Positions 8,058 through 25,891 of a stretch of DNA of 64,000 nucleotides are shown here, one piece after another. The notes beneath the pieces are model-generated. The model was not told the DNA's origin, ran no database searches, and saw only the letters and a program-made list of their open reading frames with translations. Within the stretch, counting starts at the first letter, position 1; every line of letters starts with the position of its first letter. A program made the position numbers and the translations under genes. The stretch covers positions 28,309 to 92,308 of the forward strand of contig CAZPKG010000011.1 in NCBI GenBank assembly GCA_964587105.1, given 5' to 3'. This DNA is from an uncultured Alphaproteobacteria bacterium (lineage in GTDB: Bacteria > Electryoneota > RPQS01).

Positions 8058-10577
8058 CTATTTACTCTCGTCGCGATTGATCAATACGGGATTCTGATTA
8101 GTTAGACCGGGCGTCGGCGGAGTACAATCCAGAGTCAGAACGAAGATTACTTCGTTTGATGGATTGGGTGCGAAAAACGTGTTGGCGAACGAACCCGCCG
8201 GGGTATAAAGCGACCAATCCGCCGAGTACGATGTCGGGAAAACTGCGCTCGGATTCGTTGACCACCAAAGTGTGATGACACCCGCCTCCTGTTGATGCCA
8301 TCTTACAGTGTAGGCATCCGCAGGGGTGGCAAGCATATTAATCGTCACGCTGTCCGGAGCCGGACACGGCGGAGTAAGACAGAAGGCAAAATCATACGGC
8401 GGCTGCGATGAAGTCCCGTCTCCAAACGGCGAGGTTACCCATGTCCACGGACAGTCCGTATCACCTACCTTTGCCACGCTCATTAAGCCGCTCGGAATGC
8501 CGCAGGGCGGATGAATTTCCACGTCGTATTGGGATAAATACCTCGAGTTGAAATATAGATCCGGCAGCAGCGTTCCAGTTGCCGTAACGGTGTACTCGCA
8601 CGTGTTTCCGCCGTCTGTAAAGTAAAGACGAAATGTCTCAAACTCGCTGCAAGTACCCGTAAAACCCCAAAACCGCACGGCGCCGACTGGCTCCGGCGTG
8701 ACGTAATTGTCATACTGAATCTGACTGAAATCGATATGTGACGTGAATGCTTGCGGAGACTCCGAGTTCATCGCTGGCAGTTGACCGACCACACTACGGT
8801 TGCCGCATTCTGCGCGGATCGGGCACGGCGTATCGCAAGTAACACCCTCCGTGAACAAGCCGCCCATTGTTTGGCACATAGACAGACTCGTGATCTCGCA
8901 GCCGGGCGACTGAGGATCGCCATAACAGCAGCGGCCGTAACAAGAACTTACCGTGAGTTCAAATTGACCACAGTCAGTGTGATAGGCTTCGACAGTTAGA
9001 TAGTAGCTACCCGAGCTTAAATAAGCACAGTTAATCGCGGATAATCCTGCGAAACCACAACCGTCGTCATCCTCATAAAAAGGAGAGCCGTCGCATGTGG
9101 GCGTCAAGTATATATAACTGTCCCAAAAGTCGTTGCCATTGCAAAGTGAAAATCTCCACTCCCCATTAGACGGAATGTTCACGAAGAATGTGTAATCTTC
9201 ACTCGGCCGAAGGGGATTGTTGTTGCCTGCGCCGCACGTATTCGCCACAGCCGTGCCCGGTGCCTGCAGGAAACCGTCTATCCGGCAACCGCTGCAAGGA
9301 ATGGCGTTAACCCGCACACGGTATTCGCGGAAATCAGGGGCAATATTCAGCGCATCCGTTGCCAGAAATAGAGTGTAATCGCCCGGCTGCACACATGGAA
9401 CTCTGTAGGTTAAAGTCGAACAAGGAATGGCCTGAAACTGGTTCAAGTACGTTGTGTAGTTGCAATCGAAAGAAGGAAAACTGTTGAGTTGCAACCGAAT
9501 AGGAACTTCGGTTCTGAGCGTGATGTCCAGTGAACATGGCTCCAGAATTTGGAAATAGTACCAATCCTGATCATGTTGGCCATTCGTGGCCCACGTACGG
9601 CCGCAAACAGTCTGAAAAAGACTGATCCCCTGAATGGAATTATATCCGTTACAGAAGTAATTGCAATCGAAAACAGGATCACCACCTATTTCCTCAAACG
9701 CGCATTCAGGAACGTCATTCGGCTGACACTCAATGCTGCAATTGCCTGTGATGTTCAAAACATAACTGCCCGCACTGCTGTTGTATCCATCCACGATGAT
9801 GTAATAAACCTGTCCGGCAGTAAGGTACAACGACAGATAAGATTGAAGACTGGGACTATTGTCGTCGTTACAGCCAACTGAAAAGATACCCGGGCATGAG
9901 CCCAATGTGTGCACATACAGATAGGTGTCATACGATGAACCCATCAGTGAAATAGCGTAAAAGTCGGTTATCGTCGGAGTAAACTCATAGACTACGTCAG
10001 GTGCAAAGGTCGAGTTACACGCGGAAATAGGATTGAAATCGTTTGCGCGTCCCACAGTTGTTCCCGTATCGGTGTAAGGAATTCCGGTGATGACCGTGGC
10101 CGGACAATTGTCACTTCCTTGATCAAGCGGATTGCGTTCGCGATTCTCCGGCCGTTGCTGATACAGTGCATTCAATTGTTCTTTCAAACTTGCAAAGGTC
10201 ACTTCGTCAACCGACTGAGACTGCGCGCCGCCACGAGCCTGAAGCTCGAGTTCTCGAATCTGCTCTTCAAGCGGGGTCAATTCAGTTGGGCGAATTAACG
10301 CACCGGCTTCAAAGCCTCCGTCAACCCGACCGGACTGGAGATCGTGCACCACATTACCGGAGTGTCTCTTGACTGGTGGAAGCAGCTCCTCAATTCGTGT
10401 CATCCAAGCCGGATCAGGCGTCTCCCCTGTAGCTTTTGCGTTAGCAATCAACTCTTTAAGCTCAGAAATTTCAGCCTTTGCGTCGCGAAATGCGTCCGGC
10501 TGTGTAGCGCTCAAATCGGCTGCAACAACGAAACTATTACAGCAAAGAACAACAATCGTGAACAGCAGTTTCTTCAT
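8058..10577 (-). CDS. Giant secreted Cys-rich multidomain protein, paralog A1 (PPC-type domains, C-terminal Fn3-like domain)
   Basis: Signal peptide MKKLLFTIVVLCCNSFVVAA. Conserved module ...RPENRERNPLDQGSDNCPATVI. PPC-like domain (DVVYEF...YDTYLYV...CNDD...AGQVYYIIVDGY). C-terminus WWSTNPSAVFP...VLTLDC is Fn3-like. RBS GGAGAcgatATG. Confidence 0.8.
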   Translation of the reverse strand: MKKLLFTIVVLCCNSFVVAADLSATQPDAFRDAKAEISELKELIANAKATGETPDPAWMTRIEELLPPVKRHSGNVVHDLQSGRVDGGFEAGALIRPTELTPLEEQIRELELQARGGAQSQSVDEVTFASLKEQLNALYQQRPENRERNPLDQGSDNCPATVITGIPYTDTGTTVGRANDFNPISACNSTFAPDVVYEFTPTITDFYAISLMGSSYDTYLYVHTLGSCPGIFSVGCNDDNSPSLQSYLSLYLTAGQVYYIIVDGYNSSAGSYVLNITGNCSIECQPNDVPECAFEEIGGDPVFDCNYFCNGYNSIQGISLFQTVCGRTWATNGQHDQDWYYFQILEPCSLDITLRTEVPIRLQLNSFPSFDCNYTTYLNQFQAIPCSTLTYRVPCVQPGDYTLFLATDALNIAPDFREYRVRVNAIPCSGCRIDGFLQAPGTAVANTCGAGNNNPLRPSEDYTFFVNIPSNGEWRFSLCNGNDFWDSYIYLTPTCDGSPFYEDDDGCGFAGLSAINCAYLSSGSYYLTVEAYHTDCGQFELTVSSCYGRCCYGDPQSPGCEITSLSMCQTMGGLFTEGVTCDTPCPIRAECGNRSVVGQLPAMNSESPQAFTSHIDFSQIQYDNYVTPEPVGAVRFWGFTGTCSEFETFRLYFTDGGNTCEYTVTATGTLLPDLYFNSRYLSQYDVEIHPPCGIPSGLMSVAKVGDTDCPWTWVTSPFGDGTSSQPPYDFAFCLTPPCPAPDSVTINMLATPADAYTVRWHQQEAGVITLWWSTNPSAVFPTSYSADWSLYTPAGSFANTFFAPNPSNEVIFVLTLDCTPPTPGLTNQNPVLINRDESK

Positions 10578-10668
10578 ATCGTCTCCATTGGTTAAGTATC
10601 ATCAAGATAACATAACACGACTATATTAGTCAAGAATTAACAAGTGTGAGCAAAATAAATCAAAAAAA

Positions 10669-10690
10669 GCGGCCCGATTGCTCGGGCCGC
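10669..10690 (-). terminator. Rho-independent terminator after paralog A2
   Basis: caaaaaaa-gcggcccg-attgct-cgggccgc. Confidence 0.65.
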
Positions 10691-10723: not shown

Positions 10724-13336
10724 TTAACGCGTCACCGGATTATTCAGCGGGACAGGGGGCTGATTAATCTGAAGCATCGGAACGTCGCCACCCGGATTCT
10801 GAATTGCGATATTACTGCAATCCACGGTCAGGACATAGACGATTTCATTCGACGGATCCGGCGCATAGAACGAGTAGTTCATCAATCCACCCGGAACATA
10901 GCCACTGACCATCTGCGTGTATGTGGCAGGGAAAACCGCATTCGGATTTGCTGACCACCACAAATGCACAACGCCTTCCGGCTGCCACCATCTCAGTGTG
11001 TAAGCATCGGCGATGTTAGGATACAATTCAATGGTCACGCTGTCCGGCGAAAGGCACTGTCCGCCCAAGCAGAACGCGAGATTAGTTCCTGTGTCAAAGG
11101 GAGGTTGGCCGACCCAGTAACCGTTTGCGGTTGAGCCGTAGCCGGTGATCGCATATGACCAATAAAAGTTGCAGCCACTGCCTTGTTCAGCAATTTGCAC
11201 GTCACCGTTCAGAATCGTGCACGGCGGATTGAGTTCCGTCGAGTACTCGAGAATCCGGTAAGTGTTCCATTGCAGATACTTCGGAGTTCCTGTCAAAGTG
11301 ACGTTGTAAACCTGCGAAGTGTTGTTCACACTGTCAAAGAACGTGATTTGGAAGTTGTGCGGATCCGTGTTGCAGGCGCCCTGCTCAGCAAACACACCCC
11401 AGAACCTGATCGTACCAATCGGCCCTCCGACCAAGTAATCTTCGGCATTGAAGAAACCTTGATCCCCATCGGAGAGATTTGCATTCCACGGTTCATCGGG
11501 AAGCATCGGCAACTGACTGAGATAAGCGCCCGCCGTCGCGCAGGTCGGACGAGTGAAGCACGCGCCGCTTGAGCACGGTTCCATGTACGTCCACACTCCT
11601 CCGAGGCTGTCGCAGATTCCTTGTGACAATTGATTACAGCCGGGATCATCCGGATTGCCGTAGCAGCACGAGCCGATACATTCGAAAACATTCAACACAA
11701 ACGGACCACAGCCGGATGACCAGGCTTCCACCGTCAAGTAGTAGATGCCCGGATTTAGATGGACACAGTTGATCGTGGAAAGTCCGACGCCGCCGCAGCC
11801 GTCGTCGTCCTGTGCGATGACGCCGCCGTTACACGAACCTGACAAATAGATGTAGCTGTCCCAAATGCTGTCGTCGTTGCAAGTCGAAAATGTCCATTCA
11901 CCGGCATAAGGAATGTTCACGGCGTAAGTGTAGTCTTCGCTCGGACGCAAGGTGTTGTCGTCACCCGCGCCGCAAGTGTTCCAAGCTGCCGAACCCGGAG
12001 CTTGGAAATATGAATCAACTTGGCAACCGCTACACGGAACCAGATCAACACGAGCGCGATAGTCACGCGGAGTGTTTAGGCCGGTTTGGCTGGCGGGAAG
12101 AACGATGAGTGAGTATGTGCCAGGCTGGAGACACTGTGTTAAAAACGTGGCGGTCGAGCACGAGTATTGCCAGTCGTATGGACCGGAAACAATGGAGTAA
12201 GGACAGGAACCGGGAAAAACGTACATCTGTGATGCGAACTCCGCGTTGATCGTCAGCGCGAGCGAACACGGTTCAAAAATCGTAAAACGATAGGAGTCCA
12301 CGTCCCGGAAGGGCGAGTTAAAACTGGTGAGATACGTAAATCCGCGGCCGCATACAGTCTGGAACGGCAAAATGTCTTGCCACGATTCCGTGCCGCCGTA
12401 AAAGCCATCCTGACAAGAGCCGTTGCAATCTACCACCTCAAAACCGGGGCCGGGAACTTCAGCACACTCGAGAACATCGCTGGGCTGGCAAACAACATCA
12501 CAGTTGTCCGTGATATTGAGCACGTAGTTGCCACTGGCAACGTCAAAACCGTCTACGATGATGTAGTACGTCTGCCCGCCATTCAAGATGACCGAAACAA
12601 ACGACTGCAAACTAAAGTAATCGTCATTGCAGGCCACTTGAGTCGTACCGGGGCAACCGCCATTGGTATTGACATGAAGATAGGTGTCGTAGGACGAGCC
12701 TAACAACGAGATATTGTACGTCTGAGTCACTTGCGGAGTAAACTCATAAACAACATCGCTTGCATCACTAAAAGCGCAGTCCGAAATGGGGTTGTAGTTA
12801 TTGGCGAAGCCAACTGTCGTGCCGCCGTCCGAGTAAGGAACTCCACCGATAACCGTTCCCGGGCAAACATCATTGCCTTGATCGAGCGGATTGCGCTCAC
12901 GGTTCACGGGACGCTGTGCGTAAAGTTCATTCAACTGCTCTTTCAGATTCGCGAAGGTGACTTCGTCAACTCCCTGAAGGGACATTCCGCCGGACAGATG
13001 AAACTCCAACTCTTTGATCTGAGCTTCAAGCGGGGTCAATTCCGTTGGGCGAATCACCGCGCCGGGAGCAAAGCCTCCCTCGCTCTGAAACGCCTGCAAG
13101 TCCGCCGGGACTTTGCTCGCATGACCTTTAACGGACGGAATCAGCTCGCGAATCCGAGCCGTCCAGGCCGGATCGGGCGTCTGGCCTGTAGCCTTTGCCT
13201 TAGCAATCAGGTCTTCAAGCTTAGCAATTTCAGCCTTCGGGTCGCTCAATGTGAGCGGCACCGTCTGGCTTGGTCCAGCAGCAATAGCGTAGAATGCACA
13301 ACATAGGACAACAATCACAACTGACATTCTCTTCAT
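10724..13336 (-). CDS. Giant secreted Cys-rich multidomain protein, paralog A2
   Basis: Start moved to MKRMSVV (13336), which has the same RBS context (ccaatGGAGAtgatATG) as A1. Very similar to A1 and A3 at the N-terminal module and the C-terminal Fn3-like end. Confidence 0.8.
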   Translation of the reverse strand: MKRMSVVIVVLCCAFYAIAAGPSQTVPLTLSDPKAEIAKLEDLIAKAKATGQTPDPAWTARIRELIPSVKGHASKVPADLQAFQSEGGFAPGAVIRPTELTPLEAQIKELEFHLSGGMSLQGVDEVTFANLKEQLNELYAQRPVNRERNPLDQGNDVCPGTVIGGVPYSDGGTTVGFANNYNPISDCAFSDASDVVYEFTPQVTQTYNISLLGSSYDTYLHVNTNGGCPGTTQVACNDDYFSLQSFVSVILNGGQTYYIIVDGFDVASGNYVLNITDNCDVVCQPSDVLECAEVPGPGFEVVDCNGSCQDGFYGGTESWQDILPFQTVCGRGFTYLTSFNSPFRDVDSYRFTIFEPCSLALTINAEFASQMYVFPGSCPYSIVSGPYDWQYSCSTATFLTQCLQPGTYSLIVLPASQTGLNTPRDYRARVDLVPCSGCQVDSYFQAPGSAAWNTCGAGDDNTLRPSEDYTYAVNIPYAGEWTFSTCNDDSIWDSYIYLSGSCNGGVIAQDDDGCGGVGLSTINCVHLNPGIYYLTVEAWSSGCGPFVLNVFECIGSCCYGNPDDPGCNQLSQGICDSLGGVWTYMEPCSSGACFTRPTCATAGAYLSQLPMLPDEPWNANLSDGDQGFFNAEDYLVGGPIGTIRFWGVFAEQGACNTDPHNFQITFFDSVNNTSQVYNVTLTGTPKYLQWNTYRILEYSTELNPPCTILNGDVQIAEQGSGCNFYWSYAITGYGSTANGYWVGQPPFDTGTNLAFCLGGQCLSPDSVTIELYPNIADAYTLRWWQPEGVVHLWWSANPNAVFPATYTQMVSGYVPGGLMNYSFYAPDPSNEIVYVLTVDCSNIAIQNPGGDVPMLQINQPPVPLNNPVTR

Positions 13337-13442
13337 ATCATCTCCATTGGTTAGGGTATCAGATAAGATAACATAATATGATGTCATTTGTCAACAATTA
13401 GAGCATTCACACATATAGAGCATTCACACATAATAAAACAAA

Positions 13443-13464: not shown

Positions 13465-13485
13465 TTCACTGACGTTCAAAAAAGG

Positions 13486-16092
13486 TTACTTGACTTCGTT
13501 CTGCGGTATGAACATGGGATTCAATGGAAGTCCTGTTGCAGGCGATGGGGCACCGCAATCCAAAGTCAAGACGTAAATAACCTCTGGTGACGGATCCGGT
13601 GCAAAGAACGCGTTGCTGTACGAACCTGCCGGAAGATTTAAGCTGAACAACTCCGTGTAGGTTGCCGGAAACACTGCGCTCGGATCTGTTGACCACCACG
13701 CGCGCACTAATCCTGCTGGCTGCCACCATCTTATGCTGTAAGCATCAGTGAAGTCGGGCAACATTCTGATCGTCAAACTATCGGGCGCAACGCACCCGGC
13801 ACTCAGACAGAATGCGAGTTCATGGTTCGACTCGAATGGCCCTTCTCCGTTATAGCTTACATGCGCAAACTGTCCATTGCCCAAAACGGTCCACGACCAG
13901 TAGAATTCACAGGATGGGGACGTCGACTCCACAACGCGAACCCAGCCGTTCGTGATTGTGCACGGCGGATTGATTTCGGCCGTGTACTCCAATAGCGTGT
14001 AGTCGTTGAAGTAGACAAGCGGAAGCACTGTGGCCGACAGCGTGACGTTGTAGGTCTGTGTCAAATTGTTCACACTGTCAAAAAACGTGATTTCGAAATT
14101 CTGCGGATTGGTGTTGCAAGTTCCGCCTTCGCTGAAGATACCCCAGAACCGAATGGAGCCGATGGCTGACGAGACTGAATAGTCCTCGTAAAACGCGTAG
14201 CCCGAATTCAAGTCCGACACGTTTGCATCCCACGGCTCGCCCGGAACAAAAGGCAACTGGCTGAAAATCACCTCGCCATCGCCGCAGTCAGGCCGCGTGT
14301 AGCACGCGGCGGCCGAACACGGCTCTTGATATGTCCATGCTCCGCCTAAAGCATTACAATCGCTTAGTGAGACATAATCGCAAGCAGGATATAGAGGATC
14401 GCCGTAACAACACGAACCCAAACACTCAAACACGTTCAGCACGAACGGGCCGCAGACATCTCCGGGCCCAGCTTCCACTGTTAAGTAGTAGTTGCCGGCC
14501 GAAAGATGCAGGCAGCTAATTGTTGAAAGTCCGGCATCGCCGCAACCGTTGTCATTCTCGGCAAAAACTCCGCCGCTGCACTCAGATGTCAAATACATGT
14601 AGCTGTCCCAAATGCTGTCGTCGTTGCACGTCGAAAACGTCCAATCCGATTCGTGGGGAATATTCACGACATATGTGTACTCTTGGCTGATGCGCAAACT
14701 GTTGTCATTACCCTCGCCGCAAGTGTTCTCCGCCGTGCTTCCCGGAGCTTGCAGGAAGTTGTCAATCCGGCAATTGTTGCAGGGAATCAAATCAACGCGC
14801 GCACGATACTGCTGCATCGAGTTAATCCCCGACCAAGTCGGCGGCAGAATCAAAACTGCGTAAGTGCCGGGCTGCACACACGGTGTCACAAACGTCACCG
14901 TCGAACAGGCATAAGACCAAGTTGGTGAGTTGTACAGCGAGCTCCACGGACATGTTGTGGTTAAGACCGCGACCTGGCTGCCGACCTCTGAATTCACTGT
15001 CACAGCAATCGAGCAGGCCTCAGTGATCGTCAAACGGTACGCGTCCACATCCGGAAGGATGAACGATCCATCTGCCGTGGGATGGGTGAAGGTGTTGCCG
15101 CACACCGTCTGAACGGGTAAGATGTCCTGAAAGGAAGCGACGCCTCCGAACATAGTATTGTTGCAACCTCCGTTGCAATCCGTTGTCTCATGACCCGGTG
15201 CAACCACTTCACCTGTGCACTCCAGAACGTCGCCGGGTTGGCAAGCGACTTCGCAGTTGCTCGTGACATTCAGAGTGTATGCGCCGGAATTGATGTCATA
15301 TCCGTCCACGATGATATAGTAAACCTGCCCGGCAGTCAGAGACAATGAAAGATAGGATGCGAGATTTGCGCCGTTGTCGTCGTTGCAGCCGACTGAGAAT
15401 ATTCCCGGGCATGAACCCAACGTGTGTACATAAAGATATGTGTCATACGATGAGCCCATCAGCGAAATGTTGTACACCTGACTTATAGCCGGAGTAAACT
15501 CATAGACTACATCAGGCGCGTTCGTGTTATTGCACGGACTGATTGGACTGAAGTCATTCGCACGCCCGTCGGTCGAGCCGGTGTCAGAGAAGGGAACTCC
15601 TGTGATTAGCGTGGCAGGACAAAAATCATTGCCCTGATCAAGCGGATTGCGCTCACGGTTTTCCGGACGCTGTGCATAGAGCGCGTTCAACTGCTCTTTC
15701 AAACTCGCAAAGGTGACCGGATCAACGCCTTGAAATGACAGGCCTCCGGAAAGCTCAAACTCGAGCGCGCGAATCTGCTGCTCGAGCGGGGTCAAATCTG
15801 TTGGGCGAATCACCGCACCCGGAGCAAAGCCTCCATCCAATTGAAAGGCCTCGAGATTAGCAGGCACTTTACTCGCGTGACCTTTGACCATCGGAATCAA
15901 CTCGCGAATACGAGTTGTCCATGCAGGGTCAGGGGTTTGGCCTGTGGCCTTTGCTTTAGCAATCAGGTCTTCAAGCTCTGTAATTTCAGACGCAGGTGAT
16001 TTCAATCCCTGCAACAATGACGAGTTCTGTCCAGAAGCAATTGCACATAATGAGCAACATAAAACAACAATCGCAAGCAACAATCTTTTCAT
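13486..16092 (-). CDS. Giant secreted Cys-rich multidomain protein, paralog A3
   Basis: Signal peptide MKRLLLAIVVLCCSLCAIASG. High identity to A1 over the first ~270 aa (ERNPLDQGNDFCPATLI..., SYDTYLYVHTLGSCPGIFSVGCNDDN). Fn3-like C-terminus. Confidence 0.8.
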   Translation of the reverse strand: MKRLLLAIVVLCCSLCAIASGQNSSLLQGLKSPASEITELEDLIAKAKATGQTPDPAWTTRIRELIPMVKGHASKVPANLEAFQLDGGFAPGAVIRPTDLTPLEQQIRALEFELSGGLSFQGVDPVTFASLKEQLNALYAQRPENRERNPLDQGNDFCPATLITGVPFSDTGSTDGRANDFSPISPCNNTNAPDVVYEFTPAISQVYNISLMGSSYDTYLYVHTLGSCPGIFSVGCNDDNGANLASYLSLSLTAGQVYYIIVDGYDINSGAYTLNVTSNCEVACQPGDVLECTGEVVAPGHETTDCNGGCNNTMFGGVASFQDILPVQTVCGNTFTHPTADGSFILPDVDAYRLTITEACSIAVTVNSEVGSQVAVLTTTCPWSSLYNSPTWSYACSTVTFVTPCVQPGTYAVLILPPTWSGINSMQQYRARVDLIPCNNCRIDNFLQAPGSTAENTCGEGNDNSLRISQEYTYVVNIPHESDWTFSTCNDDSIWDSYMYLTSECSGGVFAENDNGCGDAGLSTISCLHLSAGNYYLTVEAGPGDVCGPFVLNVFECLGSCCYGDPLYPACDYVSLSDCNALGGAWTYQEPCSAAACYTRPDCGDGEVIFSQLPFVPGEPWDANVSDLNSGYAFYEDYSVSSAIGSIRFWGIFSEGGTCNTNPQNFEITFFDSVNNLTQTYNVTLSATVLPLVYFNDYTLLEYTAEINPPCTITNGWVRVVESTSPSCEFYWSWTVLGNGQFAHVSYNGEGPFESNHELAFCLSAGCVAPDSLTIRMLPDFTDAYSIRWWQPAGLVRAWWSTDPSAVFPATYTELFSLNLPAGSYSNAFFAPDPSPEVIYVLTLDCGAPSPATGLPLNPMFIPQNEVK

Positions 16093-16231: not shown

Positions 16232-18667
16232 TCATTCAATCTTGATAAACTGTCCTGGCGACTCCTCACCTGCTATCGGTGGTGGGCCGCATTGTGCCGT
16301 GATAATGTAACGACGATTCGGGACTGCGGTGTTGTCAGTACCGAACCAATCTCCTGCCGGTAACGATCCAGCCAAGAGCACGGTGTAAGTGGCGGGATAG
16401 ACCGCGTCTATGTTGTCACTGTAGTACAGTCGCACATAAGACGCTTCGGGCAAATGGAACATGATGTCGTATGTATCTGCCGCCGCACGGCGAATCACGA
16501 CGCTATCCGGCTTGGGACAGCCGCGGCCTAAACAGATACTCACGTCATACGGCAAGTCTACCGGATCGCCCGGATGATGCAGCACAACCGATCCGTTGCC
16601 TTGCGGAGAAGTCACCCACGCAAACACGCATGCATCATTCGATGTGCCGCGCACCCGCACGCGACCCGAAAGAATATTGCAATTCGTCGGCAGATCAAAA
16701 TCATACTGATAGACAGGAAATTGCGCACCGTAATTCTGCGGCACCTGATACCCGTTAATGGTGCCGGTGTATGTCTGCACGGCGGGGCCGTTCGCACTGT
16801 CCACAAAGGTAATCTCAAACGACTCTGGCTGTGTGAAACAGGGCAGACCGTTATTGTAATCGGTGTACAAACCCCAGAATCGGACAGAAGAGATAGGCCC
16901 AGTAACGGTATAGTCTTCCCACAAACTGTAATTGATGTACACGTCCGATGCCACCGCCGTCCATGTTTCCGTCGGCAAATGCGGCAGCTGGCTGAATTGT
17001 GACCCATCTTCACATTGCGGCCTCACTCCGCAAACTTCCGGCGAGCACTCTTGCCCCAATGTGAATTCTCCTCCCAAACTATTGCACGCCGAGAGTGTGC
17101 CATACGAGCATTGTTGATTGTAGTAATCGTTGCCGTAACAGCACGAGCCGAGGCACTCAGAAGCTTCAAGCGCCCATGCGCCACAGTCTGCGGCACCCGC
17201 GCCTTCCACAGTGAGATAGTAATTACCCGGCATGAGAGTGACACAATCTATGCTTGATAAGGGGCCACACGCGTCGTCGCTTTGCGCGATAATCTGACTG
17301 TTGCATGCGCTTGTTAAATAGAGATAGCTGTTCCACTCCGCAGACGAACCGCACAACGAGAATGTCCAATCAGAGGCGTACGGTACAATGATGCACATCG
17401 TGAAATCTGCACTTGGCCGCAGACTATTGTCATTGCCTTGGCCGCACGTCGTGAAGAGCGTAACCGAGGCAGGTAACGTGATCTGCCCTTGATCAACCTT
17501 ACAACCGGAACAGGGGAACTCTTCAATCATGAAGAGATAGGGAAGCTGAGACGGAGCGCCTGAATAGAAATTCGGCGCGATGTTGATGGTATATGTACCA
17601 GCAGGCAAACACTGTGTGACCGGAGCTAAGACAGAACAGGCAGGCAAGTTGGCATAATAGAAAATCCCAGTCGGCACACATCCGTCGTAATTGGACAGCC
17701 AGAAATCGAAGGTAAACGACGTGATGACATCAAGTTTCAAACTGCACGGTTCGGTCAGAGTGAAGTAGTAGCTGTCAATGTCACGTGCCGGAAAATTGTT
17801 CTGATCCGTGTAGGTGAACACGTTGCCGCGCATAAATTGACAGTGATTCGCGGGCTGATACTGTTCAAATCCGCCGTTCCAAATGTTGTTGCAGCCGCCG
17901 TTGCAATCCCACGCGGCGTGCATCGGATCGTTCAGACTCTCTCCGCACTCCTGCTGAAAGCTGCTCGATTGCGCGAGCAAACAGCCGTTGTTAATGGTCA
18001 GAACAAAGTTGCCGGAGTGGTTGTTGGCGCCGTCAATGATGATGAAATACTCTTGTCCGGCATTCAACATCACGATGACTTCGGAATACGACCCAAACAT
18101 ATCATCGTTGCAGGAAACTTGGGTATTTCCCGGACACGCGCCGCCCGTGTTGACATAGAGCTGCGTATCATAGTTGGAGCCGTAGAGCGAGATGCGAAAA
18201 GTTTGCGATGTGGCCGGAACATAGCGATAGATTTTGTCCGGCGCGAAAGTCGTCCCGCACGGCGTTATCGGGTTGAAGTTGTTTACTGCGCCGACAGTCG
18301 TACCGTAATCAACGAACGGAATAATCCCCGACGGAATTGTTGTGGCAGGACACGCATCCGATCCGTCATCAAGCGGACTTCGCTCGCGCGGTTGTTGACC
18401 GAGAAGTGCGGCCAGTTCGAGTTCGAGTTGTTGATAGGTCGCACTGTCGAGTGCCGTTGAACGACCGTAGTTTTGCATGTGCCATTCGAGGTCTGCAATC
18501 TGCTGTTCCAGCGGCGAGCGATTCTGCGGATGCAGAATCAACGCACTTTCAAGATCAAACGGTAACTCTTCACCATTTGGACAAGATGCGCTGGCAATAT
18601 TTGCGCTGAACGCAAATAGCAGAACCAGAAACCCGGACAGAAGCACTGTGATCCTCTTCATGATCAT
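16232..18667 (-). CDS. Giant secreted Cys-rich multidomain protein, paralog A4 (subfamily 2)
   Basis: Signal peptide. Module LEQQIADLEWHMQNYGRS...RERSPLDDGSDACPATTI. PPC-like domain. Shared central blocks with A5 (HAAWDCNGGCNN, IEEFPCSGCKVD, YYLTVEG). C-terminus YPATY...C. Confidence 0.75.
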   Translation of the reverse strand: MIMKRITVLLSGFLVLLFAFSANIASASCPNGEELPFDLESALILHPQNRSPLEQQIADLEWHMQNYGRSTALDSATYQQLELELAALLGQQPRERSPLDDGSDACPATTIPSGIIPFVDYGTTVGAVNNFNPITPCGTTFAPDKIYRYVPATSQTFRISLYGSNYDTQLYVNTGGACPGNTQVSCNDDMFGSYSEVIVMLNAGQEYFIIIDGANNHSGNFVLTINNGCLLAQSSSFQQECGESLNDPMHAAWDCNGGCNNIWNGGFEQYQPANHCQFMRGNVFTYTDQNNFPARDIDSYYFTLTEPCSLKLDVITSFTFDFWLSNYDGCVPTGIFYYANLPACSVLAPVTQCLPAGTYTINIAPNFYSGAPSQLPYLFMIEEFPCSGCKVDQGQITLPASVTLFTTCGQGNDNSLRPSADFTMCIIVPYASDWTFSLCGSSAEWNSYLYLTSACNSQIIAQSDDACGPLSSIDCVTLMPGNYYLTVEGAGAADCGAWALEASECLGSCCYGNDYYNQQCSYGTLSACNSLGGEFTLGQECSPEVCGVRPQCEDGSQFSQLPHLPTETWTAVASDVYINYSLWEDYTVTGPISSVRFWGLYTDYNNGLPCFTQPESFEITFVDSANGPAVQTYTGTINGYQVPQNYGAQFPVYQYDFDLPTNCNILSGRVRVRGTSNDACVFAWVTSPQGNGSVVLHHPGDPVDLPYDVSICLGRGCPKPDSVVIRRAAADTYDIMFHLPEASYVRLYYSDNIDAVYPATYTVLLAGSLPAGDWFGTDNTAVPNRRYIITAQCGPPPIAGEESPGQFIKIE

Positions 18668-18676: not shown

Positions 18677-21157
18677 CTATTTGCTTTTCTGAGGGAGATC
18701 CAAATTAATCGGGAAAACTTGACTCGGTCCATACTCAGAACCCGCCGATTCCAACGCCGGTTCGCTGCAATCGGCAATAGCTATGAAGCGGCGGTTGGGT
18801 GAAATCATCGGCTCGACAAATCCGTAGTTACCGGCCGACAACCAACCAGAGTAGATTGGCAAATAGGTCGCCGGATACACCGCGTTGATGCTGTCGGAAT
18901 ACGAGAGCGTCACAAACGAACCAAATGAAACGTGAAAACCGAGATAGTAGAATCCGTCAGGAACATTGAATGTCGTGATGATGAGACTGTCAGGCTTTGG
19001 GCAGCCTTCCACCAAACAGACTGCGACGTCCGACGGAAGATTGACCGGACCGCCCGAATTGATCAACACGACCGAACCGTTTCCGAACGGTGAAGTAGCC
19101 CAGTAGAACAGGCAATTATCGGCATCGGTTCCGCGAATACTCAATCGTCCGTTTTGAATTGTGGCCATCGACGGCAAATCAACAAAATATTCGGTCATGA
19201 CGAAATTTGCACCGTAGTTTTGCAAAAGCGGAAGACCTGCGACGCTCACATTAAAGCTTTGCACAAGCGGACCAGCAGAACTGTCCACAAATGTGATGTC
19301 GAAATTCTGCGGTTGCTCCGTGCAAGCAAGACCAGTATTGATGTCAAGATTCAAACCCCAGAAGCGAACGGATTTGATCGCGCCGCTGACGGAGTAATCC
19401 TCCCACACACGGAATTGGTAGCCGTTATCCGAAGAGAGCGCGCTCCAAGGTTCATCGGGAACATGCGGTCTTTGCGAAAACATCGAGCCCGCTTCGCATC
19501 CCGGTCGCGGATAGCAAAGTCCCGGTGTGCATTGCTGGCCAAGCGTGAACTGTCCGCCCAGCGCGTCACACGCCGTACGCGAACCAAACGAGCACGACGG
19601 ATTCCACATGTCGCCGTAACAACAGGATCCTTCGCACGCGGTTGCCGTCAAATAAAACTGACCGCAGTCATTGGCGTTGAAGCCTTCTATGGTCAGATAG
19701 TAGTTTCCCGGCATCAGCGAAACACACTCAATCTTTGACAAGCCGTTCGCCGCACAACCGTCGTTGTCCTGTGCGATGATGCCGCCGTTACATTCGGAGG
19801 TTAAATACAAATAGCTGTTCCACGCGGGCGAGCCGCACAACGAGAACGTCCAATCAGAAGCATAGGGAATCACCACACAATACGTCGCGTCGTTGCTTGG
19901 CCTGAGCGAATTATGCGAGATGTTATCACAACCATTGGCCGTGAACGACGACGGCGCGATGAAGCTCGCATCCACGCGACAACCTGAACAGGGAATCGGA
20001 TCCACTTTAAGCAGATACGGCAGCGGATCCGGCATGTTGGAATAGAAATTTGGCGAAATTTCCAGTGAATATGTTCCAGCCGGCAGGCATTGTGTGATGT
20101 AGGTTCCGCCGTTGCACGGCCCGATATTGAGCAGTGAAACATAATTCTGCGGCACGCAGAAGCCGTAATCGTTGATCAGCACATTGTACGAGAACGTCGA
20201 GAACATGGACACGGCTAAACTGCACGGCTCAGTGATTGTGAAGTAATAACTATCTATGTCGCGCGCGGTGATATTATTCTGATCGAGATAAGTGAAACAG
20301 CTTCCGCGCATGAACTGGCACATGTTCATTTGCTGCCACGTCGGAAAGCCACCGTTCCACTGATTGTTGCAGCCGCCGTTGCAATCCCAGGCCGCGTGCA
20401 TCGGATCGCCGACCGACTCCGCGCACTCTTGCTGCCACGAATTGTCAAAACCAATCGCGCAATCGCCGCTGATGTGTAAAACGAAATTCCCGGAGTAGTT
20501 GCTGAAACCGTCCACGATGACGTAATAGGTTTGCCCCGGGTGCATCCACAAGGTGACCTTTGACTGCGAACCGCCGAAATCGTCGTTACACGCGACCGCT
20601 GTGTTGCCCGGACAGGAGCCGCCGGTTCTAACGTAAAGTTGCGTATCGAAATTCGAGCCGAACGTGTCCCAAGAATAGTAGGCGCCGGTGGCCGGAGTGT
20701 AACTGTAAATTTTGTCGGGCGCGCTGTTCCCTCCGCACGGTGCGAATGAATTGAAATTGTTCGCCGCGCCAACCGTTGTGCCGTAATCGACATTGGGCAC
20801 CATACCCGCCGGAAACACCGTCGCGGGACATGTGTCTGATCCGTCGTCAAGCGGATTGCGATCACGCGGAAGTTGTTCATAGAGCGCATTCAACTCGCCT
20901 TTCAACTGCATGTAGGTCGCGTCATCGAGCGGAGTGGAATGGCCGACATTGCTTAACCGCCGTTCCAAATCCTGTATCTGCTGTTCAAGCGGTGAGAGCG
21001 GCTGCAGGCGCACCGTCTGAACTTCGTCTTCAGTCACAGGCAACCCTGATCCCTCCCACAATCCGGCCCACGCACAGTTCTGACCCATATTGCAGAGCAA
21101 AGCAATACAGCCCAAGACCAACAATACTGTCCCATTCTTTCGCATCTGGCACCTCAC
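18677..21157 (-). CDS. Giant secreted Cys-rich multidomain protein, paralog A5 (subfamily 2)
   Basis: Close paralog of A4. Only a 9-nt gap to A4 with no terminator between them, so probably cotranscribed. The alternative start MRKNGTVLLVLGC (21145) gives a cleaner signal peptide. Confidence 0.75.
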   Translation of the reverse strand: MRCQMRKNGTVLLVLGCIALLCNMGQNCAWAGLWEGSGLPVTEDEVQTVRLQPLSPLEQQIQDLERRLSNVGHSTPLDDATYMQLKGELNALYEQLPRDRNPLDDGSDTCPATVFPAGMVPNVDYGTTVGAANNFNSFAPCGGNSAPDKIYSYTPATGAYYSWDTFGSNFDTQLYVRTGGSCPGNTAVACNDDFGGSQSKVTLWMHPGQTYYVIVDGFSNYSGNFVLHISGDCAIGFDNSWQQECAESVGDPMHAAWDCNGGCNNQWNGGFPTWQQMNMCQFMRGSCFTYLDQNNITARDIDSYYFTITEPCSLAVSMFSTFSYNVLINDYGFCVPQNYVSLLNIGPCNGGTYITQCLPAGTYSLEISPNFYSNMPDPLPYLLKVDPIPCSGCRVDASFIAPSSFTANGCDNISHNSLRPSNDATYCVVIPYASDWTFSLCGSPAWNSYLYLTSECNGGIIAQDNDGCAANGLSKIECVSLMPGNYYLTIEGFNANDCGQFYLTATACEGSCCYGDMWNPSCSFGSRTACDALGGQFTLGQQCTPGLCYPRPGCEAGSMFSQRPHVPDEPWSALSSDNGYQFRVWEDYSVSGAIKSVRFWGLNLDINTGLACTEQPQNFDITFVDSSAGPLVQSFNVSVAGLPLLQNYGANFVMTEYFVDLPSMATIQNGRLSIRGTDADNCLFYWATSPFGNGSVVLINSGGPVNLPSDVAVCLVEGCPKPDSLIITTFNVPDGFYYLGFHVSFGSFVTLSYSDSINAVYPATYLPIYSGWLSAGNYGFVEPMISPNRRFIAIADCSEPALESAGSEYGPSQVFPINLDLPQKSK

Positions 21158-21297: not shown

Positions 21298-23388
21298 CTA
21301 CTTCAGTAAGACAGCCTTTTGCACGGCGTTAAAGGCAGGAGTTTCGAGCTTCACAAAATAGGTGCCGCTGGACAAATTTTCGCCGTTGAATTGCATTGAG
21401 TGTGTTCCGCTTGCGAAACGACCGTTGTACAAAACATTTGCTTCGCGGCCCAACACATCGTAAACCACCAACCGCCCTGTGACTTCGCGCGGTAAATCGA
21501 ACGAGATGTTCGCCGTGTTGTTGAACGGGTTGGGGTAGATGGGGTGTAACGCGAAAGATGTTGGGAGCTCGTGATTATCTTCAGGATGGAATGCGTCCGA
21601 CACATCATAAATTGTGAAATAATTCCGTTCAGCTACAAAAGCAAATCCGTTTTGAATATTGCACCCGTCAGCAGCGCGAGCTCCAACGTAGTGACCCACT
21701 ACTTGAGGCGCCACGGGATTCGAAATATCGACAATGCTAATGCCGTTGTTTCGCGAAACAAATGCGAAGTTTCCCGCTACAGTGACTGAATTTGCGTATG
21801 CAAGCGAGTCTATCGCGCTAACCTCGACCGGATTATGAACATCAGTTACGTCAATAATGAAAAACCCAGCCGACCAATTGGCAATGTATGCGTAGTTTCC
21901 TTGAACATCAAGCGCCGCCGGGTAATAGGCTGCATCGTACTCGCTTATTAACTCCGGAACCGACGGATTTGAAACATCAATAATGAATAACTTTTGGTCA
22001 CCAATCACAAACGCGTAATTGCCTTCTATGTCAATATCATCAACAGCGGTCAATTGAAACCGTGTAATCAGATCAGGATTTTCAGGGTTACTGATATCTA
22101 AAATACTGAGCGATGAGAAGTTACCTCCCGCATAAAGATAGTTACCGCTCACAGCAACAGTGTAGACGTTTGAACTGAGTTACACGGATTGCAATTCAAC
22201 AAGCCCACGAGGATTGGTAATATCTATGACACGCAGCGCCGAATAGTCTGCGACATATGCCGTATTGCCCGCAATACAAATGTCCCAAGATTGGCTGTAT
22301 GATCCTACCGAACTCAGTTCTACGGGTGCAACTGGATTTGAGATGTCAACTGATCGAATTCCTTTGGTATTTTCTGCTAAAAAGGCGAAAGAATCCTTAA
22401 TGGCTACGGCATGGACAAATCTTCTGGGAGTGTAGGTGTCCGCTCGAAAAAATGAACCGATGCTATCCGATATAAACGTGTTAAAGCCCTCAAAATTCAC
22501 AAAATAAAACGTTGAACCGTCGACGAAAAGGTTCCGTGCAGTACCGACCGTGAAGTCTTGTACCTGTACCGGCAAGGCTGGATTGCTTAAATCGAGAATA
22601 GCGAGGCCATTACCTGCGAGAATAGCTTTTGTGCCTGTAACGTCTATCTGGCGAGCGAGGTCAAATTGATAGGACGCGACATTCACTGGTGCAAAGGGAT
22701 CGCTGACATCAACAACCAAAAGACCGCTGTCTTCGGCAGCAATCAAAGCGTAGTTCTGCCAGAGTTTTACGTCGTTCAGCGGACCGGCCAGCGGCCACTG
22801 CATATACATTGTCGGCGATGCAGAATTCGCAGCATTGAAAATGAAAAGGCCGTCGGTTTCGCTTACAACAAACACAAGCGAGTCACGCACATCTAAGTTC
22901 TGTGCGCGATCTATTTCGATGGCATTTTCTATCACGACCGGCGTTTCAGGATTTGAAACATCTATGATCGATATACCGTGATTTGTGCACGCGAATGCCT
23001 TGTCACCGGAAATAGTCAGATCACGTCCTCCAATTTCTGTAGCGACTGGGGTTCCTACTTCTACCGGTCTGAACGGATTAAGGATGTCGAGTACATGCAG
23101 TAATGCGTGGTTATCCACGATGAATGCATAGTGTCCAACGAGGGCAACTTCAATGACAGCATTATGGGGGTCATACTGGCTGATGTCAATAGGGTGATGT
23201 GAATCAGCAATATTGAAGATATGAAGCCCCGTCCAACCAGTGGCCGCAAAAAGCAACGTGTCTTTGATTTCAAAATCCACAATCTCGTCACAATAGTCTG
23301 TTAACCCTCCAATCCTTCGCACATTCAAACTATCCTGCCCCCAAACAAGGGCGGGAATAAAGGACAAAAATATGTAGAATTTGCGCAT
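21298..23388 (-). pseudogene. LVIVD-repeat beta-propeller T9SS cargo gene interrupted by a single in-frame TAA
   Basis: The upstream ORF 22180-23388 has a signal peptide and LVIVD repeats but no CTD. The downstream ORF 21298-22152 has LVIVD repeats plus a T9SS CTD but no signal peptide. Both are in the same frame and separated only by TAA at 22180-22182 (...VELQSV*LSSNVYTVAVSGNY...). Confidence 0.6.
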
Positions 23389-23500
23389 GGACAGACTCCT
23401 GCAAAGGACGATTTCTCTAAGATACTCCCGAAATTCCTGATAGTCAACCTACCCGCACTTAATTCAGAAAACTCCACCATGCAAGCCTCAAGCAAAGAAA

Positions 23501-23522
23501 AGCGGCCCGGTGAGGGGCCGCT
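23501..23522 (-). terminator. Rho-independent terminator after paralog A6
   Basis: aaagaaaa-gcggccc-ggtgag-gggccgc. Confidence 0.6.
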
Positions 23523-23563
23523 TCAATCGGGCAGATTGCTGTCCGCCCTGACATGATCACGGA

Positions 23564-25891
23564 TCATTCGTTGAATTTAACGTGTGGTTCACTCGGCGGT
23601 GCGGCGATTGCTTGCGGGCAGTTCACGACCAAAACGACGTTCATGTAACTCAGTGAGGAAAACAAAGCCTGTGAATGATGTCCTACACCAAAGTTACTTG
23701 AGCCATAAGAAACATATCCTGCGGGATATACTGCGTTCGGATCGGTTGTGTAATACACCGTAGTTGTACCGGCTTCGGGTTGCCACCACTCAATTGTGAA
23801 CGTGGAACCTCCTTCAAACCTGATGGTCAAACTGTCTGCTTGTTCGCAAATAATCGGTTCACTTAGACAGAACGCGTAATCCACTCCGTTGCACGGCCCG
23901 TAATTGTCGCCGAACTCAGACGTCGCCCAGGCGAAGATGCAATTCGGATCGTTCACTTTAACCACACTGACTGTTCCCGACTGAATGGTGCACGGTGGAT
24001 TGAGCGCGACGGTGTATTCGTGCATGTTCATCATCGAATAATAGACCGGAGGTAAAACCGTTCCGACCGTGGTGACGTTGTAGGTTTGTGTCGCGGCTCC
24101 GTCTGTAAACGTGATGACAAATTGCTCCGGCACCGCGTCGCAGAAGCGCGAAAATCCCCAGTAACGAATGGAACCAATCGGGCCGGTCACCGAATAATTG
24201 TCGCAGCGAGTGGCAAAGTCTTCATGCGAAGCATAATCGTTGCCGTTTTCATCGGGAAGCCACGGGTATTGACCGAACATCGAAAGATTTGCACAGCCCG
24301 GACGTGAGGCACACGCGCCTGTCGAGCAAGGTTCTCCGACAGTAAAATGTCCGTTCAAAACTTCACACTCGGAAATGGTCGTTGTCTGACAGCTTGGTGA
24401 AGTTGGATTGCCGTAACAGCACGAACCTGTACACTCTGTGATATTGAGCGTATAATCTCCGCAATCGTAAATGAATCCATTTGTTACAGTCAGGTAGTAA
24501 ACACCGGGCGGAAAACCGACACACCCAAGCGATGACAGCCCAAGCTGCTGTCCGCAACCGTCGTTATCCGACACAATAGTATTTGAGCAGCAAGAGTACT
24601 CAATCTGAAGGTAGCTGTCCCAATTGACGGGTCCACCGCATAGCGAAATATTCCAATAGGCTGTCTGCGGCACAACCAAAGCCCATGTATCCTTGTAAGA
24701 GTCCCATCCTCCGCAATCGACAAATGGCCCGCAATTATTGCCCGTATAAACACCGGGACCTGTAATCACGCCGCCGTCAACTGTACAGCCGCTCTCAGGA
24801 AGCGGTTCAGCCTTAAATCTGTATTCCCGGTAGTCGTTTATCCCCGTGAATCCCGGCGGTGCAATCCAGAGATTGTATGTGCCCGGTTGGATCAGCGGCG
24901 AAATATAGGTTGTCGTCGAACAAGGATTCTGAAGTAGCGGCGCTTGCCAGATAATTGACCACGGGCAGTTATCCGTTACGAGGATGGCGTACAGACGGAC
25001 CTCGCTCGTCAAAGTTAATTTTACTGAGCACGCTTCCGAAAAAGTTATCCGGTATGCGTCAACATCGCGTTGCGATTCTCCGTTGCCGTCCAGATAATTG
25101 AATGTGCGGCCGCAAACCGTTTGAAACGGCAAAATTGTCTGAACCGCCTGCGACGGCACACTGCATCCGCCGTTGCAATCGTTGATCTCATGTCCCGGAG
25201 CGCGCGTCTCGGCACATTCGATGACGTCGTTCGGCTGACATAAAATTTCGCAATTGTCGTGAATGGTCAGCACATAGTCTCCCGAACTGCTGCTATAGCC
25301 GTCCACGTAAATATAATACGGAGTTCCGCCGGTCAGAGTCAGCGTAATCAGCGATGTCGTTCCCGGCCCGCTATCATCATCGCCGCCGACCTGTGCGTTG
25401 CCCGGACAGGGGCCGCCGCCGATGATATACAGATAGGTGTCGTAACTGCTGCCTTCTGTGGTAATCGTATAGCTCAACGTGTGCGACGGCACGAACGAAT
25501 AGACTACGTCCGGCGCTGAGGTAAGGCCGCACGGCGAATAGGGCGCGTGATTGTCCGCGTAACCTGTCGTTGTGCCCGTCACCACAATCGGCATTCCGGA
25601 AAGCGGCGCTCCCGGACAGGTGTCCGTACCCTGGTCAAGAGGATTGCGATCTCCGCGAACCTCGCGCTGTGCGTAGAGCGCGCTGAGTTGTTCTTTCAGA
25701 TTGGCATAGACTACAGGGTCAGGAGCGCTGGCGCTCAAACCGCCGTCAATTTGAAATTCCAATTCTCGAATCTGCTGTTCAACCGGCATTAACTCTTGAG
25801 GATTCAATGCCGTGTTTTGTGCAAACACCTCCGAGTGGGTCACGAAAAAAAGTCCCAACAATGTCAAAATAGTCGCGGCGAACCTCATCAT
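23564..25891 (-). CDS. Giant secreted Cys-rich multidomain protein, paralog A6
   Basis: Signal peptide MMRFAATILTLLGLFFVTHS. NPLDQGTDTCPGAPL followed by a PPC-like domain. C-terminal Fn3-like domain (TIEWWQPEAGTTTVYYTTDPNAVYPAGY...NC). Confidence 0.8.
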   Translation of the reverse strand: MMRFAATILTLLGLFFVTHSEVFAQNTALNPQELMPVEQQIRELEFQIDGGLSASAPDPVVYANLKEQLSALYAQREVRGDRNPLDQGTDTCPGAPLSGMPIVVTGTTTGYADNHAPYSPCGLTSAPDVVYSFVPSHTLSYTITTEGSSYDTYLYIIGGGPCPGNAQVGGDDDSGPGTTSLITLTLTGGTPYYIYVDGYSSSSGDYVLTIHDNCEILCQPNDVIECAETRAPGHEINDCNGGCSVPSQAVQTILPFQTVCGRTFNYLDGNGESQRDVDAYRITFSEACSVKLTLTSEVRLYAILVTDNCPWSIIWQAPLLQNPCSTTTYISPLIQPGTYNLWIAPPGFTGINDYREYRFKAEPLPESGCTVDGGVITGPGVYTGNNCGPFVDCGGWDSYKDTWALVVPQTAYWNISLCGGPVNWDSYLQIEYSCCSNTIVSDNDGCGQQLGLSSLGCVGFPPGVYYLTVTNGFIYDCGDYTLNITECTGSCCYGNPTSPSCQTTTISECEVLNGHFTVGEPCSTGACASRPGCANLSMFGQYPWLPDENGNDYASHEDFATRCDNYSVTGPIGSIRYWGFSRFCDAVPEQFVITFTDGAATQTYNVTTVGTVLPPVYYSMMNMHEYTVALNPPCTIQSGTVSVVKVNDPNCIFAWATSEFGDNYGPCNGVDYAFCLSEPIICEQADSLTIRFEGGSTFTIEWWQPEAGTTTVYYTTDPNAVYPAGYVSYGSSNFGVGHHSQALFSSLSYMNVVLVVNCPQAIAAPPSEPHVKFNE

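Follow-up and report, generated by a model that had tools for sequence, protein, structure and literature searches.

What produced, and what keeps varied, a row of six large related genes for secreted proteins that lies between the head genes of a phage-like module? The question is raised by genes A1 to A6 on a 64,000-nucleotide stretch of DNA from an uncultured bacterium (contig CAZPKG010000011.1 of assembly GCA_964587105.1), which is called the window here. An earlier note, made from the sequence alone, took these genes for recently duplicated surface adhesins or antigens with conserved ends and variable cores, diversifying by gene conversion. We favour, with a probability of about 0.6, the reading that A1–A6 are an old tandem family of exported, non-catalytic binding proteins, diversified by sequence divergence, turnover of copies and recombination of domains.

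Layout of the array

By ORF, translation and alignment, all six genes are full-length open reading frames (ORFs) on the minus strand, with the coordinates that the earlier note had given. A1 (8058..10577; 839 amino acids (aa), 39 Cys) adjoins a terminase gene and is followed by A2 (10724..13336; 870 aa), A3 (13486..16092; 868 aa), A4 (16232..18667; 811 aa), A5 (18677..21157; 826 aa, from a GTG start that is uncertain) and A6 (23564..25891; 775 aa). The A2 ORF extends to 13387; its start is most likely the ATG at 13336, since this position lines up with the starts of the other copies and has a GGAG ribosome-binding site, and the database entry from A2's own contig (P0005) is 870 aa long, matching that start. 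The proteins, of 775–870 aa with 37–40 Cys each, can be aligned with one another over their whole length and form two sub-families, A1/A2/A3/A6, in which A6 is the most divergent, and A4/A5. The array is broken only by a gene for an LVIVD beta-propeller (21298..23388, minus strand; Pfam LVIVD, 1e-39), which carries a type IX secretion system (T9SS) C-terminal sorting domain (CTD; Por_Secre_tail, 3e-11). This gene, which the earlier note had correctly given as the sole interruption, is one 697-codon frame with a single in-frame TAA at 22180–22182; the repeat runs on across the stop, which is either the mark of a nonsense pseudogene or a sequencing error.

We found a common upstream layout at A1, A2, A3, A5 and A6. 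It begins with a GCGGCCCG..CGGGCCGC hairpin and T-run belonging to the preceding gene, continues with a TTGTTGAC(A/T) box and a -10-like hexamer, and ends with a GGAG ribosome-binding site and the ATG. Promoter-like sites, each of them a consensus match only, were located 5' of A2 (TTGACA/TATCTT, 13365..13394, minus strand), A1 (10604–10633), A3 (16121–16150) and A6 (25915–25944), and as a TTGTTGACA box upstream of A5. The terminator hairpin 3' of A1, with its GCGGCCCG..CGGGCCGC stem, is at 8011..8038 (minus strand), and similar hairpins are at 10664–10695, 13437–13470, 16185–16204, 21226–21248, 23499–23524 and 25973–25996. Thus G+C-rich hairpins follow A1, A2, A3 and A6, as had been noted, and additionally A4 and the LVIVD gene. 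The gap between the A5 stop and the A4 start was confirmed to be 9 nucleotides (nt), and A4 is therefore probably co-transcribed with A5. Since A4 also has its own terminator, A5–A4 would form one unit, and the consensus matches would define five transcription units, namely A6, A5–A4, A3, A2 and A1.

One GCGGCCCG..CGGGCCGC stem is common to all hairpins of the array, which were either copied along with the genes or represent a genome-wide terminator type resembling repetitive extragenic palindromes (REP-like). An exact 17-bp tandem duplication (TAGAGCATTCACACATA twice) lies at 13399–13432, between the A3 terminator and the -35 box of A2; it was the sole repeat near a promoter in a tandem-repeat scan of the window, which revealed no slippage-prone repeats. 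An inverted-repeat scan of the window returned only three inverted repeats, all intragenic, and no invertible promoter. Phase variation by either of these means was accordingly set aside for the window. Rfam and tRNA scans of the window yielded no RNA gene.

Domain architecture of the A proteins

The A proteins are built in one order. A cleavable Sec signal peptide and a helical N-terminus of about 125 residues precede a first PPC domain (PPC1), a middle beta-sandwich and a second PPC domain (PPC2); a Cys knot of the CCYG type and a jelly roll come next, and an Ig/Fn3-like domain closes the chain. In A3, the member chosen for structure modelling, these parts are encoded on the minus strand at 16030–16092 (signal peptide), 15646–16029 (helical N-terminus), 15238–15645 (PPC1), 14773–15237 (middle domain), 14425–14772 (PPC2), 14278–14424 (CCYG knot), 13798–14277 (jelly roll) and 13555–13797 (Ig/Fn3-like domain). 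The AlphaFold2 (AF2) model of A3 (pLDDT 76.6) shows a signal peptide and four helices up to about residue 140, followed by a chain of beta-sandwiches. Foldseek matched this model to the tandem collagen-binding (PPC) domains s3a–s3b of ColG, to CUB domains, and also to carbohydrate-binding-type domains of Cry and Vip3 toxins. The signal peptide, the segment EQQIRELE...NPLDQG.D.CP, the PPC domain and the two sub-families that the earlier note had listed were all found again in the family.

The PPC assignment is carried by comparisons at the level of the family. A profile of 43 full-length homologs matched the solved PPC domain 2luw (E 3.5e-6), and Pfam PPC (PF04151) matched 26 of the 43 members, at best with E 8.9e-9. 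When single sequences were scanned, PF04151 appeared in A4 only, just under the cut-off (24.3 versus 25.9 bits), and A1, A2, A3, A5 and A6 had no Pfam match at E <= 0.1; NCBIfam gave a weak FDP_fam match in A3. PPC1 (residues 150–285) is homologous to PPC2 (residues 441–556), with an hhalign probability of 96.7% (E 3e-10), and neither showed a detectable relation to the middle domain, the CCYG knot, the jelly roll or the last domain. The jelly roll has a weak match to PF23759 ('GBD_T9SS_assoc') in two members and, as modelled, may be galactose-binding-like. In the model, the C-terminal domain is a sandwich of about 80 residues (770–846) followed by a disordered tail of about 20. A separate model of the C-terminal part (314 residues, six sequences) reached a pLDDT of only 61; its best Foldseek match was an FnIII pair (E 3.7e-3), with no PDB match at E <= 0.001, and PF00041 (fn3) matched neither the A proteins nor other family members. 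The Fn3 label given to the last domain on the predicted fold is thus weakly supported.

About 30 columns of the family alignment are invariant Cys. Pfam and NCBIfam scans of A1–A6 returned no catalytic domain, and no peptidase domain was present in them, peptidase fusions being confined to the relatives at 38715 and 43742. We conclude that A1–A6 are, as far as sequence and model can tell, probably Sec-exported, disulfide-rich, non-catalytic strings of binding-type modules. Because of the fold families matched, we infer by analogy that they bind ligands; their cellular location is likewise presumed, and a role as surface adhesins or antigens may be envisaged.

A sorting domain like those of the T9SS cargo nearby was sought in the A proteins. 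PF18962 matched neither A1–A6 nor the family, and the A-family C-terminal domain compared with the five T9SS CTDs of the window gave an hhalign probability of 0.6%, so a hidden T9SS sorting domain was rejected; the comparison covered type A (Por_Secre_tail) domains, type B CTDs not being tested separately. Lipoprotein anchoring was also rejected, as the signal peptides, judged by eye and with no predictor, finish with AxA-type motifs and show no canonical lipobox.

An alternative that we regard as unlikely is that the A proteins, instead of being adhesins or antigens, assist the trypsin-like proteases with PPC modules encoded nearby, as well as other hydrolases, by capturing substrates or serving as scaffolds in a machinery that degrades proteins outside the cell. 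Their Cys-containing PPC module is shared by the Trypsin_2 proteins at 38715 and 43742 and by the proteins at 30665, 32701, 41437 and 52524, the superfamily module is found fused to peptidase domains (PF02128, PF00082 and PF13365), and the collagenase PPC domains, to which the ColG matches point, bind substrate. However, the A genes are not co-transcribed with the proteases, and a portal gene lies between them; the T9SS domain of the proteases is missing from the A proteins; and the fast mosaic evolution described below is atypical for a housekeeping digestive scaffold.

Age of the six copies

The six copies turned out not to be recent duplicates. They are 35–59% identical in amino acid sequence and 46–64% in nucleotide sequence, and synonymous divergence (pS) between paralogs is 0.45–1.0 in every 60-codon window, with synonymous sites saturated. 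The longest exact nucleotide matches between paralogs are 11–32 nt, the best direct repeat among the copies is 74% over 300 nt, and near-identical tracts between paralogs of this genome are absent. In a neighbour-joining (NJ) tree of the 43 members, each copy pairs with a protein of another assembly: A3 with P0002, P0003 and P0004, A2 with P0006 and P0008, A1 with P0035 (to which it is closest only in PPC1 and the middle domain), A4 with P0044, A5 with P0046 and A6 with P0040. The A4 ortholog P0044, in genome L001, is 77% identical and the A5 ortholog in genome L002 is 72% identical. Arrays of 3–5 copies occur in the same neighbourhood in four other genomes (L001–L004), among which copy order and content vary, as expected under birth-and-death turnover. 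The divergence of the paralogs, the saturated pS, the closer orthologs elsewhere and the arrays in L001–L004 together show that the duplications are old, not recent.

Mean pairwise identity among the six copies is 25–29% in the signal peptide, 43–61% from the coiled segment through PPC1 (50–61% in PPC1 itself), 29–32% in the middle domain, about 50% in PPC2, about 40% in the jelly roll and 29–41% in the C-terminal domain and tail. Conservation therefore peaks in PPC1 and PPC2, and since identity is low in the signal peptide and the C-terminal domain, it is not the case within the genome that both ends are conserved. The Fn3-like C-terminal domain that the earlier note had called conserved is present in six of the six copies and is among their least conserved parts. 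The pattern of conserved ends and variable core, whose absence that note had named as refuting it, was half lacking among the paralogs of this genome, and it does hold between strains (A3 compared with P0004 and with contig L008; see below).

A1 and A3 are unusually alike in PPC1 (82–86% aa and 75–78% nt identity), whereas A2 and A3 are closer elsewhere. The claim of long nucleotide-level identity between A1 and A3 was overstated: 73–78% is attained in PPC1 only, the longest exact match is 21 nt, and over roughly the first 270 aa we estimated about 68% nt identity from averaged windows in place of about 75%. Since pS within the PPC1 tract is 0.62–0.77 and the A1 ortholog P0035 has the same feature, this likeness is an old exchange or the result of constraint, not a recent tract.

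These observations bear on the idea that the copies are recent and that ongoing intragenomic gene conversion homogenises their ends and diversifies their cores in the style of antigenic variation. Tandem same-strand copies with a common architecture, the A1/A3 likeness in PPC1 and the mosaic alleles found between strains would all agree with it. However, pS is 0.45–1.0 for every paralog pair, the A1/A3 PPC1 tract included, exact matches reach at most 11–32 nt with no repeat above 74% over 300 nt, the nearest ortholog of every copy is found in another genome, and conservation of the C-terminal domain is poor. We saw no recent paralog-to-paralog conversion in this genome and no silent or partial donor cassettes, all six copies being full-length and having promoter/terminator units. 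The model is largely refuted for the present genome, and we hold it to be improbable.

Mosaic alleles between strains

Recombination is observed when strains are compared. The nearest relative of each copy shifts from domain to domain, and DNA was obtained for three A3-type genes. Between A3 and P0004, pS is 0.03–0.2 in codons 1–120 and 780–870 and 0.7–0.9 in codons 150–510; between A3 and P0002 the relation is reversed, with pS of 0.08–0.2 in codons 150–450 and 0.4–0.55 elsewhere. Informative sites of the A3/P0002/P0004 triplet switch four times along the gene. Sites uniting A3 with P0004 prevail over those uniting A3 with P0002 by 53:14 in codons 1–150, A3 with P0002 leads by 423:27 in codons 151–550, P0002 with P0004 leads in codons 601–800, and A3 with P0004 leads again by 52:11 in codons 801–900 (chi2 324, p 1e-63; p 1.5e-32 for third codon positions alone). 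The maximum chi2 was 146, as compared with a permutation maximum of 19.

The comparison of the window with contig L008 revealed the exchanged segments themselves. The backbone is 90–100% identical at the nucleotide level in four stretches: the spacer between A4 and A3, the N-terminus of A3, the segment running from the C-terminal domain of A3 into the N-terminus of A2, and the greater part of A2. In L008 a core cassette of A3 (13781..15650, minus strand; residues about 147–770) is replaced, with 50–78% nt identity against 90–100% in the flanks, as is the PPC1 cassette of A2 (12487..12880, minus strand; residues about 152–283), with 67–77% against 89–99%. Breakpoints thus lie at domain borders, as the replaced segment of A2 is exactly PPC1 and that of A3 spans residues about 147–770. 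A nucleotide identity comparison for conversion tracts, which the earlier note had proposed, gave no recent one within the genome and sharp breaks between L008 and the window. Diversification by recombination is supported in the form of mosaics between strains, and gene conversion as that note had proposed it does not extend to recent events within this genome, where pS is saturated and exact matches are 11–32 nt long. The donor DNA would have come from other strains or from unsampled paralogs.

It is doubtful that the mosaics are assembly artefacts, in which reads of co-existing strains or paralogs were joined at conserved stretches. The window and contigs L006, L007 and L008 are derived from metagenomes, and L006 and L007 are short automatic (Logan) assemblies, as this explanation would need. 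However, two contigs encode the identical P0004 protein, which speaks against chimerism, and the single contig L008 has 90–100% identical flanks on both sides of the A3 core as well as a second swap in A2. Moreover, a chimera would still require real molecules that join conserved ends to divergent cores, and similar segmental incongruence was seen for A1, A2, A4, A5 and A6 against several independent assemblies.

Diversity-generating retroelements (DGRs) or other templated hypermutation were rejected as a source of variation, since the window has no near-identical repeat pair and no reverse transcriptase (RT) was present in the ORFs scanned, which were most, not all, of the large ones.

Rate and selection

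The A family evolves faster than its neighbours. In comparison with L001–L004, the capsid protein shows 93% aa identity, a nonsynonymous divergence (dN) of 0.05 and a ratio of dN to synonymous divergence (dN/dS) of 0.05, and the portal protein 87%, 0.10 and 0.076, respectively. A-family orthologs have 51–77% identity and dN of 0.17–0.43, which is 1.7–9 times that of the neighbouring genes. Gene-wide dN/dS of the A family is about 0.1–0.2 (0.09–0.20 between species, with saturated dS), and alleles of close strains show 0.21–0.24 overall. Gene-wide positive selection was rejected on these values; the local maximum, 0.72 at about residues 241–300 of A3 versus P0002, does not exceed 1. The A family is thus fast-evolving yet selectively maintained. 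The reading in the earlier note is supported in so far as the family is secreted, Cys-rich, modular, non-catalytic and fast-evolving.

The favoured account

Under the reading that we favour, the targets of the A proteins would be ligands outside the cell or in its envelope (polymers or surfaces), with a specificity particular to each copy. The array lies in an island of 50 kb that encodes secreted proteases, propellers and cargo of the T9SS, and its five promoter/terminator units may permit separate expression. Diversification would follow three routes: fast amino-acid divergence under overall purifying selection; gain, loss and rearrangement of copies; and replacement of domains or multi-domain cores by homologous recombination anchored in conserved flanks. 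The third route would leave mosaic alleles among otherwise near-identical strains.

Several points weigh against this account. No cassette donor with better than 71–80% nt identity was found in the fetched loci and the window, and with donors missing, ectopic conversion is indistinguishable from inter-strain exchange. Every sequence used for comparison comes from a metagenome assembly. The dS between species is saturated, which limits the resolution for positive selection at single sites. The assignments of the middle and C-terminal domains rest on the predicted model and weak fold matches. Finally, the A proteins are without the T9SS CTD that their neighbours carry, leaving export past the periplasm unexplained.

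Phage-like head genes around the array

The array is embedded in phage-like genes of the plus strand. PHROG matches at 2197..6166 identify p131, p147 (virion structural), the major head protein (3543–4691; phrog_3922, 6e-37), p121 and p274 (Ig-like). The gene for the terminase large subunit (6355..8007, plus strand; phrog_2, 7e-24, and Terminase_6N) is convergent with A1, probably starts near 6560 and encodes a protein with 70–75% aa identity in L001–L004. The portal gene (29303..30595, plus strand; phrog_3753, 7e-34) lies 21.3 kb downstream of the terminase gene, the interval being filled by the array block of nine genes (the LVIVD gene counted once). A further phage-like gene at the p223 position (47272–47943, plus strand; phrog_16951, 3e-17) interrupts the secreted-protein block at 30665..55595. 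The window thus keeps the plus-strand order of head genes, split by minus-strand blocks of 21.3 kb and 16.7 kb, with a third such block after p223.

In the IMG/VR contig L088, the capsid, p121, p274, terminase, portal and p223 genes are contiguous (31–59% aa identity). In the more distant genome L074, the terminase gene adjoins the portal gene, and secreted LVIVD, PPC and LTD-type genes are interleaved at other head-gene junctions. The layout of the window, with the array block between terminase and portal, is found again in L003 and L004. Capsid proteins of four genomes show 93% aa identity, and the head set is under purifying selection. No tail, lysis or integrase genes were seen in view, and host genes flank the region.

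In their setting the A genes look like overgrown moron-type inserts in a head-only phage-like module. A phage origin of the A proteins themselves was rejected, as they have no match in PHROGs and A3 has none in 50,697 phage genomes; fold matches of A3 in BFVD are generic, with TM-scores of about 0.1. That the array serves the phage-like element, as receptor-binding proteins of a particle or as moron-type surface modifiers blocking superinfection, agrees with its place between the terminase and portal genes, which the window shares with L003 and L004, with the opposite-strand promoter-plus-terminator units and with loosely similar multi-sandwich tail and fibre proteins in Foldseek. It is most unlikely, however, given Sec signal peptides unfit for cytoplasmic virion assembly, the lack of matches in these searches and the generic viral fold matches; moreover, the head module of L088 is contiguous and has no such genes in it, as is also the case where terminase and portal meet in L074.

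We would give only a small chance to the view that the terminase, portal and capsid set has been domesticated for DNA packaging, in the manner of a gene-transfer agent or of lateral transduction; the concept of lateral transduction is described elsewhere (PMC8575950, PMC8575938). On this view the secreted-protein blocks, placed directly downstream of the terminase in the direction of headful filling, would be the DNA most often packaged and exchanged in the population, which would explain both the position of the array in the head module and the domain-precise mosaics. If true, the bacterium would have a built-in engine that shuffles a surface or secretome gene family; and if the phage-like genes package DNA, selection may have brought a fast-evolving secretome family to the site of greatest mobilisation.

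Two minor observations concern the module. In GCA_016703065.1 (L004/L010, 12607–13976 and 15484–16559), the terminase gene is in three pieces and the capsid gene is frameshifted, whereas the other genomes have both genes intact; this lineage may be one in which the phage-like module is degenerating. A hairpin element, CCCCC-AAAGTTCGC/GCGAACTTT-GGGGG followed by A(T/C)TAAGGGGGG, is repeated in intergenic positions at 2775–2819, 3348–3392, 4886–4930 and 62056–62100, separating genes of the phage-like module and, in one case, lying close to the RDD genes. Two of its copies are 93% identical, and it has no match in Rfam.

Distribution of the family

A profile search of 1.84 billion representative proteins returned 27,220 clusters at E <= 1e-3; the number at E <= 1e-30 was 2,396. 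Many are giant proteins with up to 20 Cys-containing PPC modules. The full A architecture was found in only about a dozen clusters, and in data with one genome per species, full-length relatives were confined to a handful of uncultured genomes. The scaffold, which the earlier note had called unusual, is thus a rare arrangement of common parts, its modules occurring in about 27,000 protein clusters. By record titles, the module is present in Zixibacteria, Eisenbacteria, Krumholzibacteriota, Calditrichaeota, Phycisphaerae and others. Carriers of the family are uncultured bacteria labelled 'bacterium' or Calditrichaeota at NCBI, and the isolate names of their metagenome-assembled genomes (MAGs) suggest that several related genomes come from wastewater. 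A full-text literature search yielded nothing on the A family.

Comparison with known systems

With two PPC-homologous domains each, the A proteins resemble the collagen-binding PPC (PF04151) domains of ColG and ColH. Unlike ColG and ColH, they have no protease domain in the same polypeptide, and their PPC modules bear conserved cysteines and lie near the N-terminus, not C-terminal to an enzyme.

Neisseria pilE/pilS, Borrelia vlsE, Treponema tprK and Anaplasma msp2 are surface families diversified by recombination. Like these, the A genes form an exported multigene family with mosaic alleles in which inner segments are replaced between conserved flanks. In contrast to them, an expression site served by silent partial cassettes is absent, and all six genes are complete, with putative promoters; the paralogs are too diverged for current intragenomic conversion; and the units exchanged are folded domains of 0.4–1.9 kb, not short variable loops.

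Phage morons are independent promoter–terminator units between phage genes (PMC7067206). The A genes are similar in lying on the opposite strand, with promoter- and terminator-like sites, between head genes that are adjacent in relatives. They differ in that the insert is 21 kb with nine genes, as compared with one or two small genes, in that genes for tail, lysis or integration are not in view for the element, and in being inherited in synteny across species. With the T9SS cargo of the island (PF18962) they have in common the neighbourhood, the modular beta-sandwich style and the PPC modules, whereas their C-terminal domain is unrelated to the island's CTDs (hhalign probability 0.6%).

A modular exported family with mosaic alleles is therefore of a known kind; the family itself, the domain-precise swaps and the embedding among phage head genes are new forms of it. 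The duplications are old and the copies have been kept by selection, while variation between strains arises through swaps of folded domains at linker positions. If the A proteins bind substrates or surfaces, they would offer a library made by nature, whose binding modules are stabilised by disulfides and have their points of exchange mapped.

Neighbouring genes

Further secreted proteins with 1–4 PPC modules, identified by BLASTP against A3, are encoded on the minus strand at 30665..55595 (genes at 30665, 32701, 38715, 41437, 43742 and 52524), with Pfam matches to Trypsin_2, PPC and Por_Secre_tail. PPC-type modules recur, as the earlier note had reported, at 30665–35196, 38715–47071 and 52524–55595, with trypsin-like fusions at 38715 and 43742. 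Its figure of more than 45% of the window for the whole group is slightly too high for the A genes and the three distant ranges that it had counted (about 44%), and is reached when 38715–41444 is included (48%). The PPC-family ORFs at 30665–32659 and 32701–35196 are in different frames, 41 nt apart, and the former aligns with residues 137–649 of A3 at 33–45% identity; the pair may be either two genes or a single frameshifted one.

The coding ends of the T9SS CTDs in three cargo genes (21299–21564, 26039–26304 and 27662–27927) are up to 85% identical over 266 nt. No other repeats of the window are as similar in nucleotide sequence, and conversion of sorting-domain ends may be the reason. Two zinc-ribbon/RDD membrane proteins, encoded at 59742–60251 and 61420–62052 on either side of a phosphoribosyltransferase gene, are paralogous, with 74% nt identity over 137 nt.

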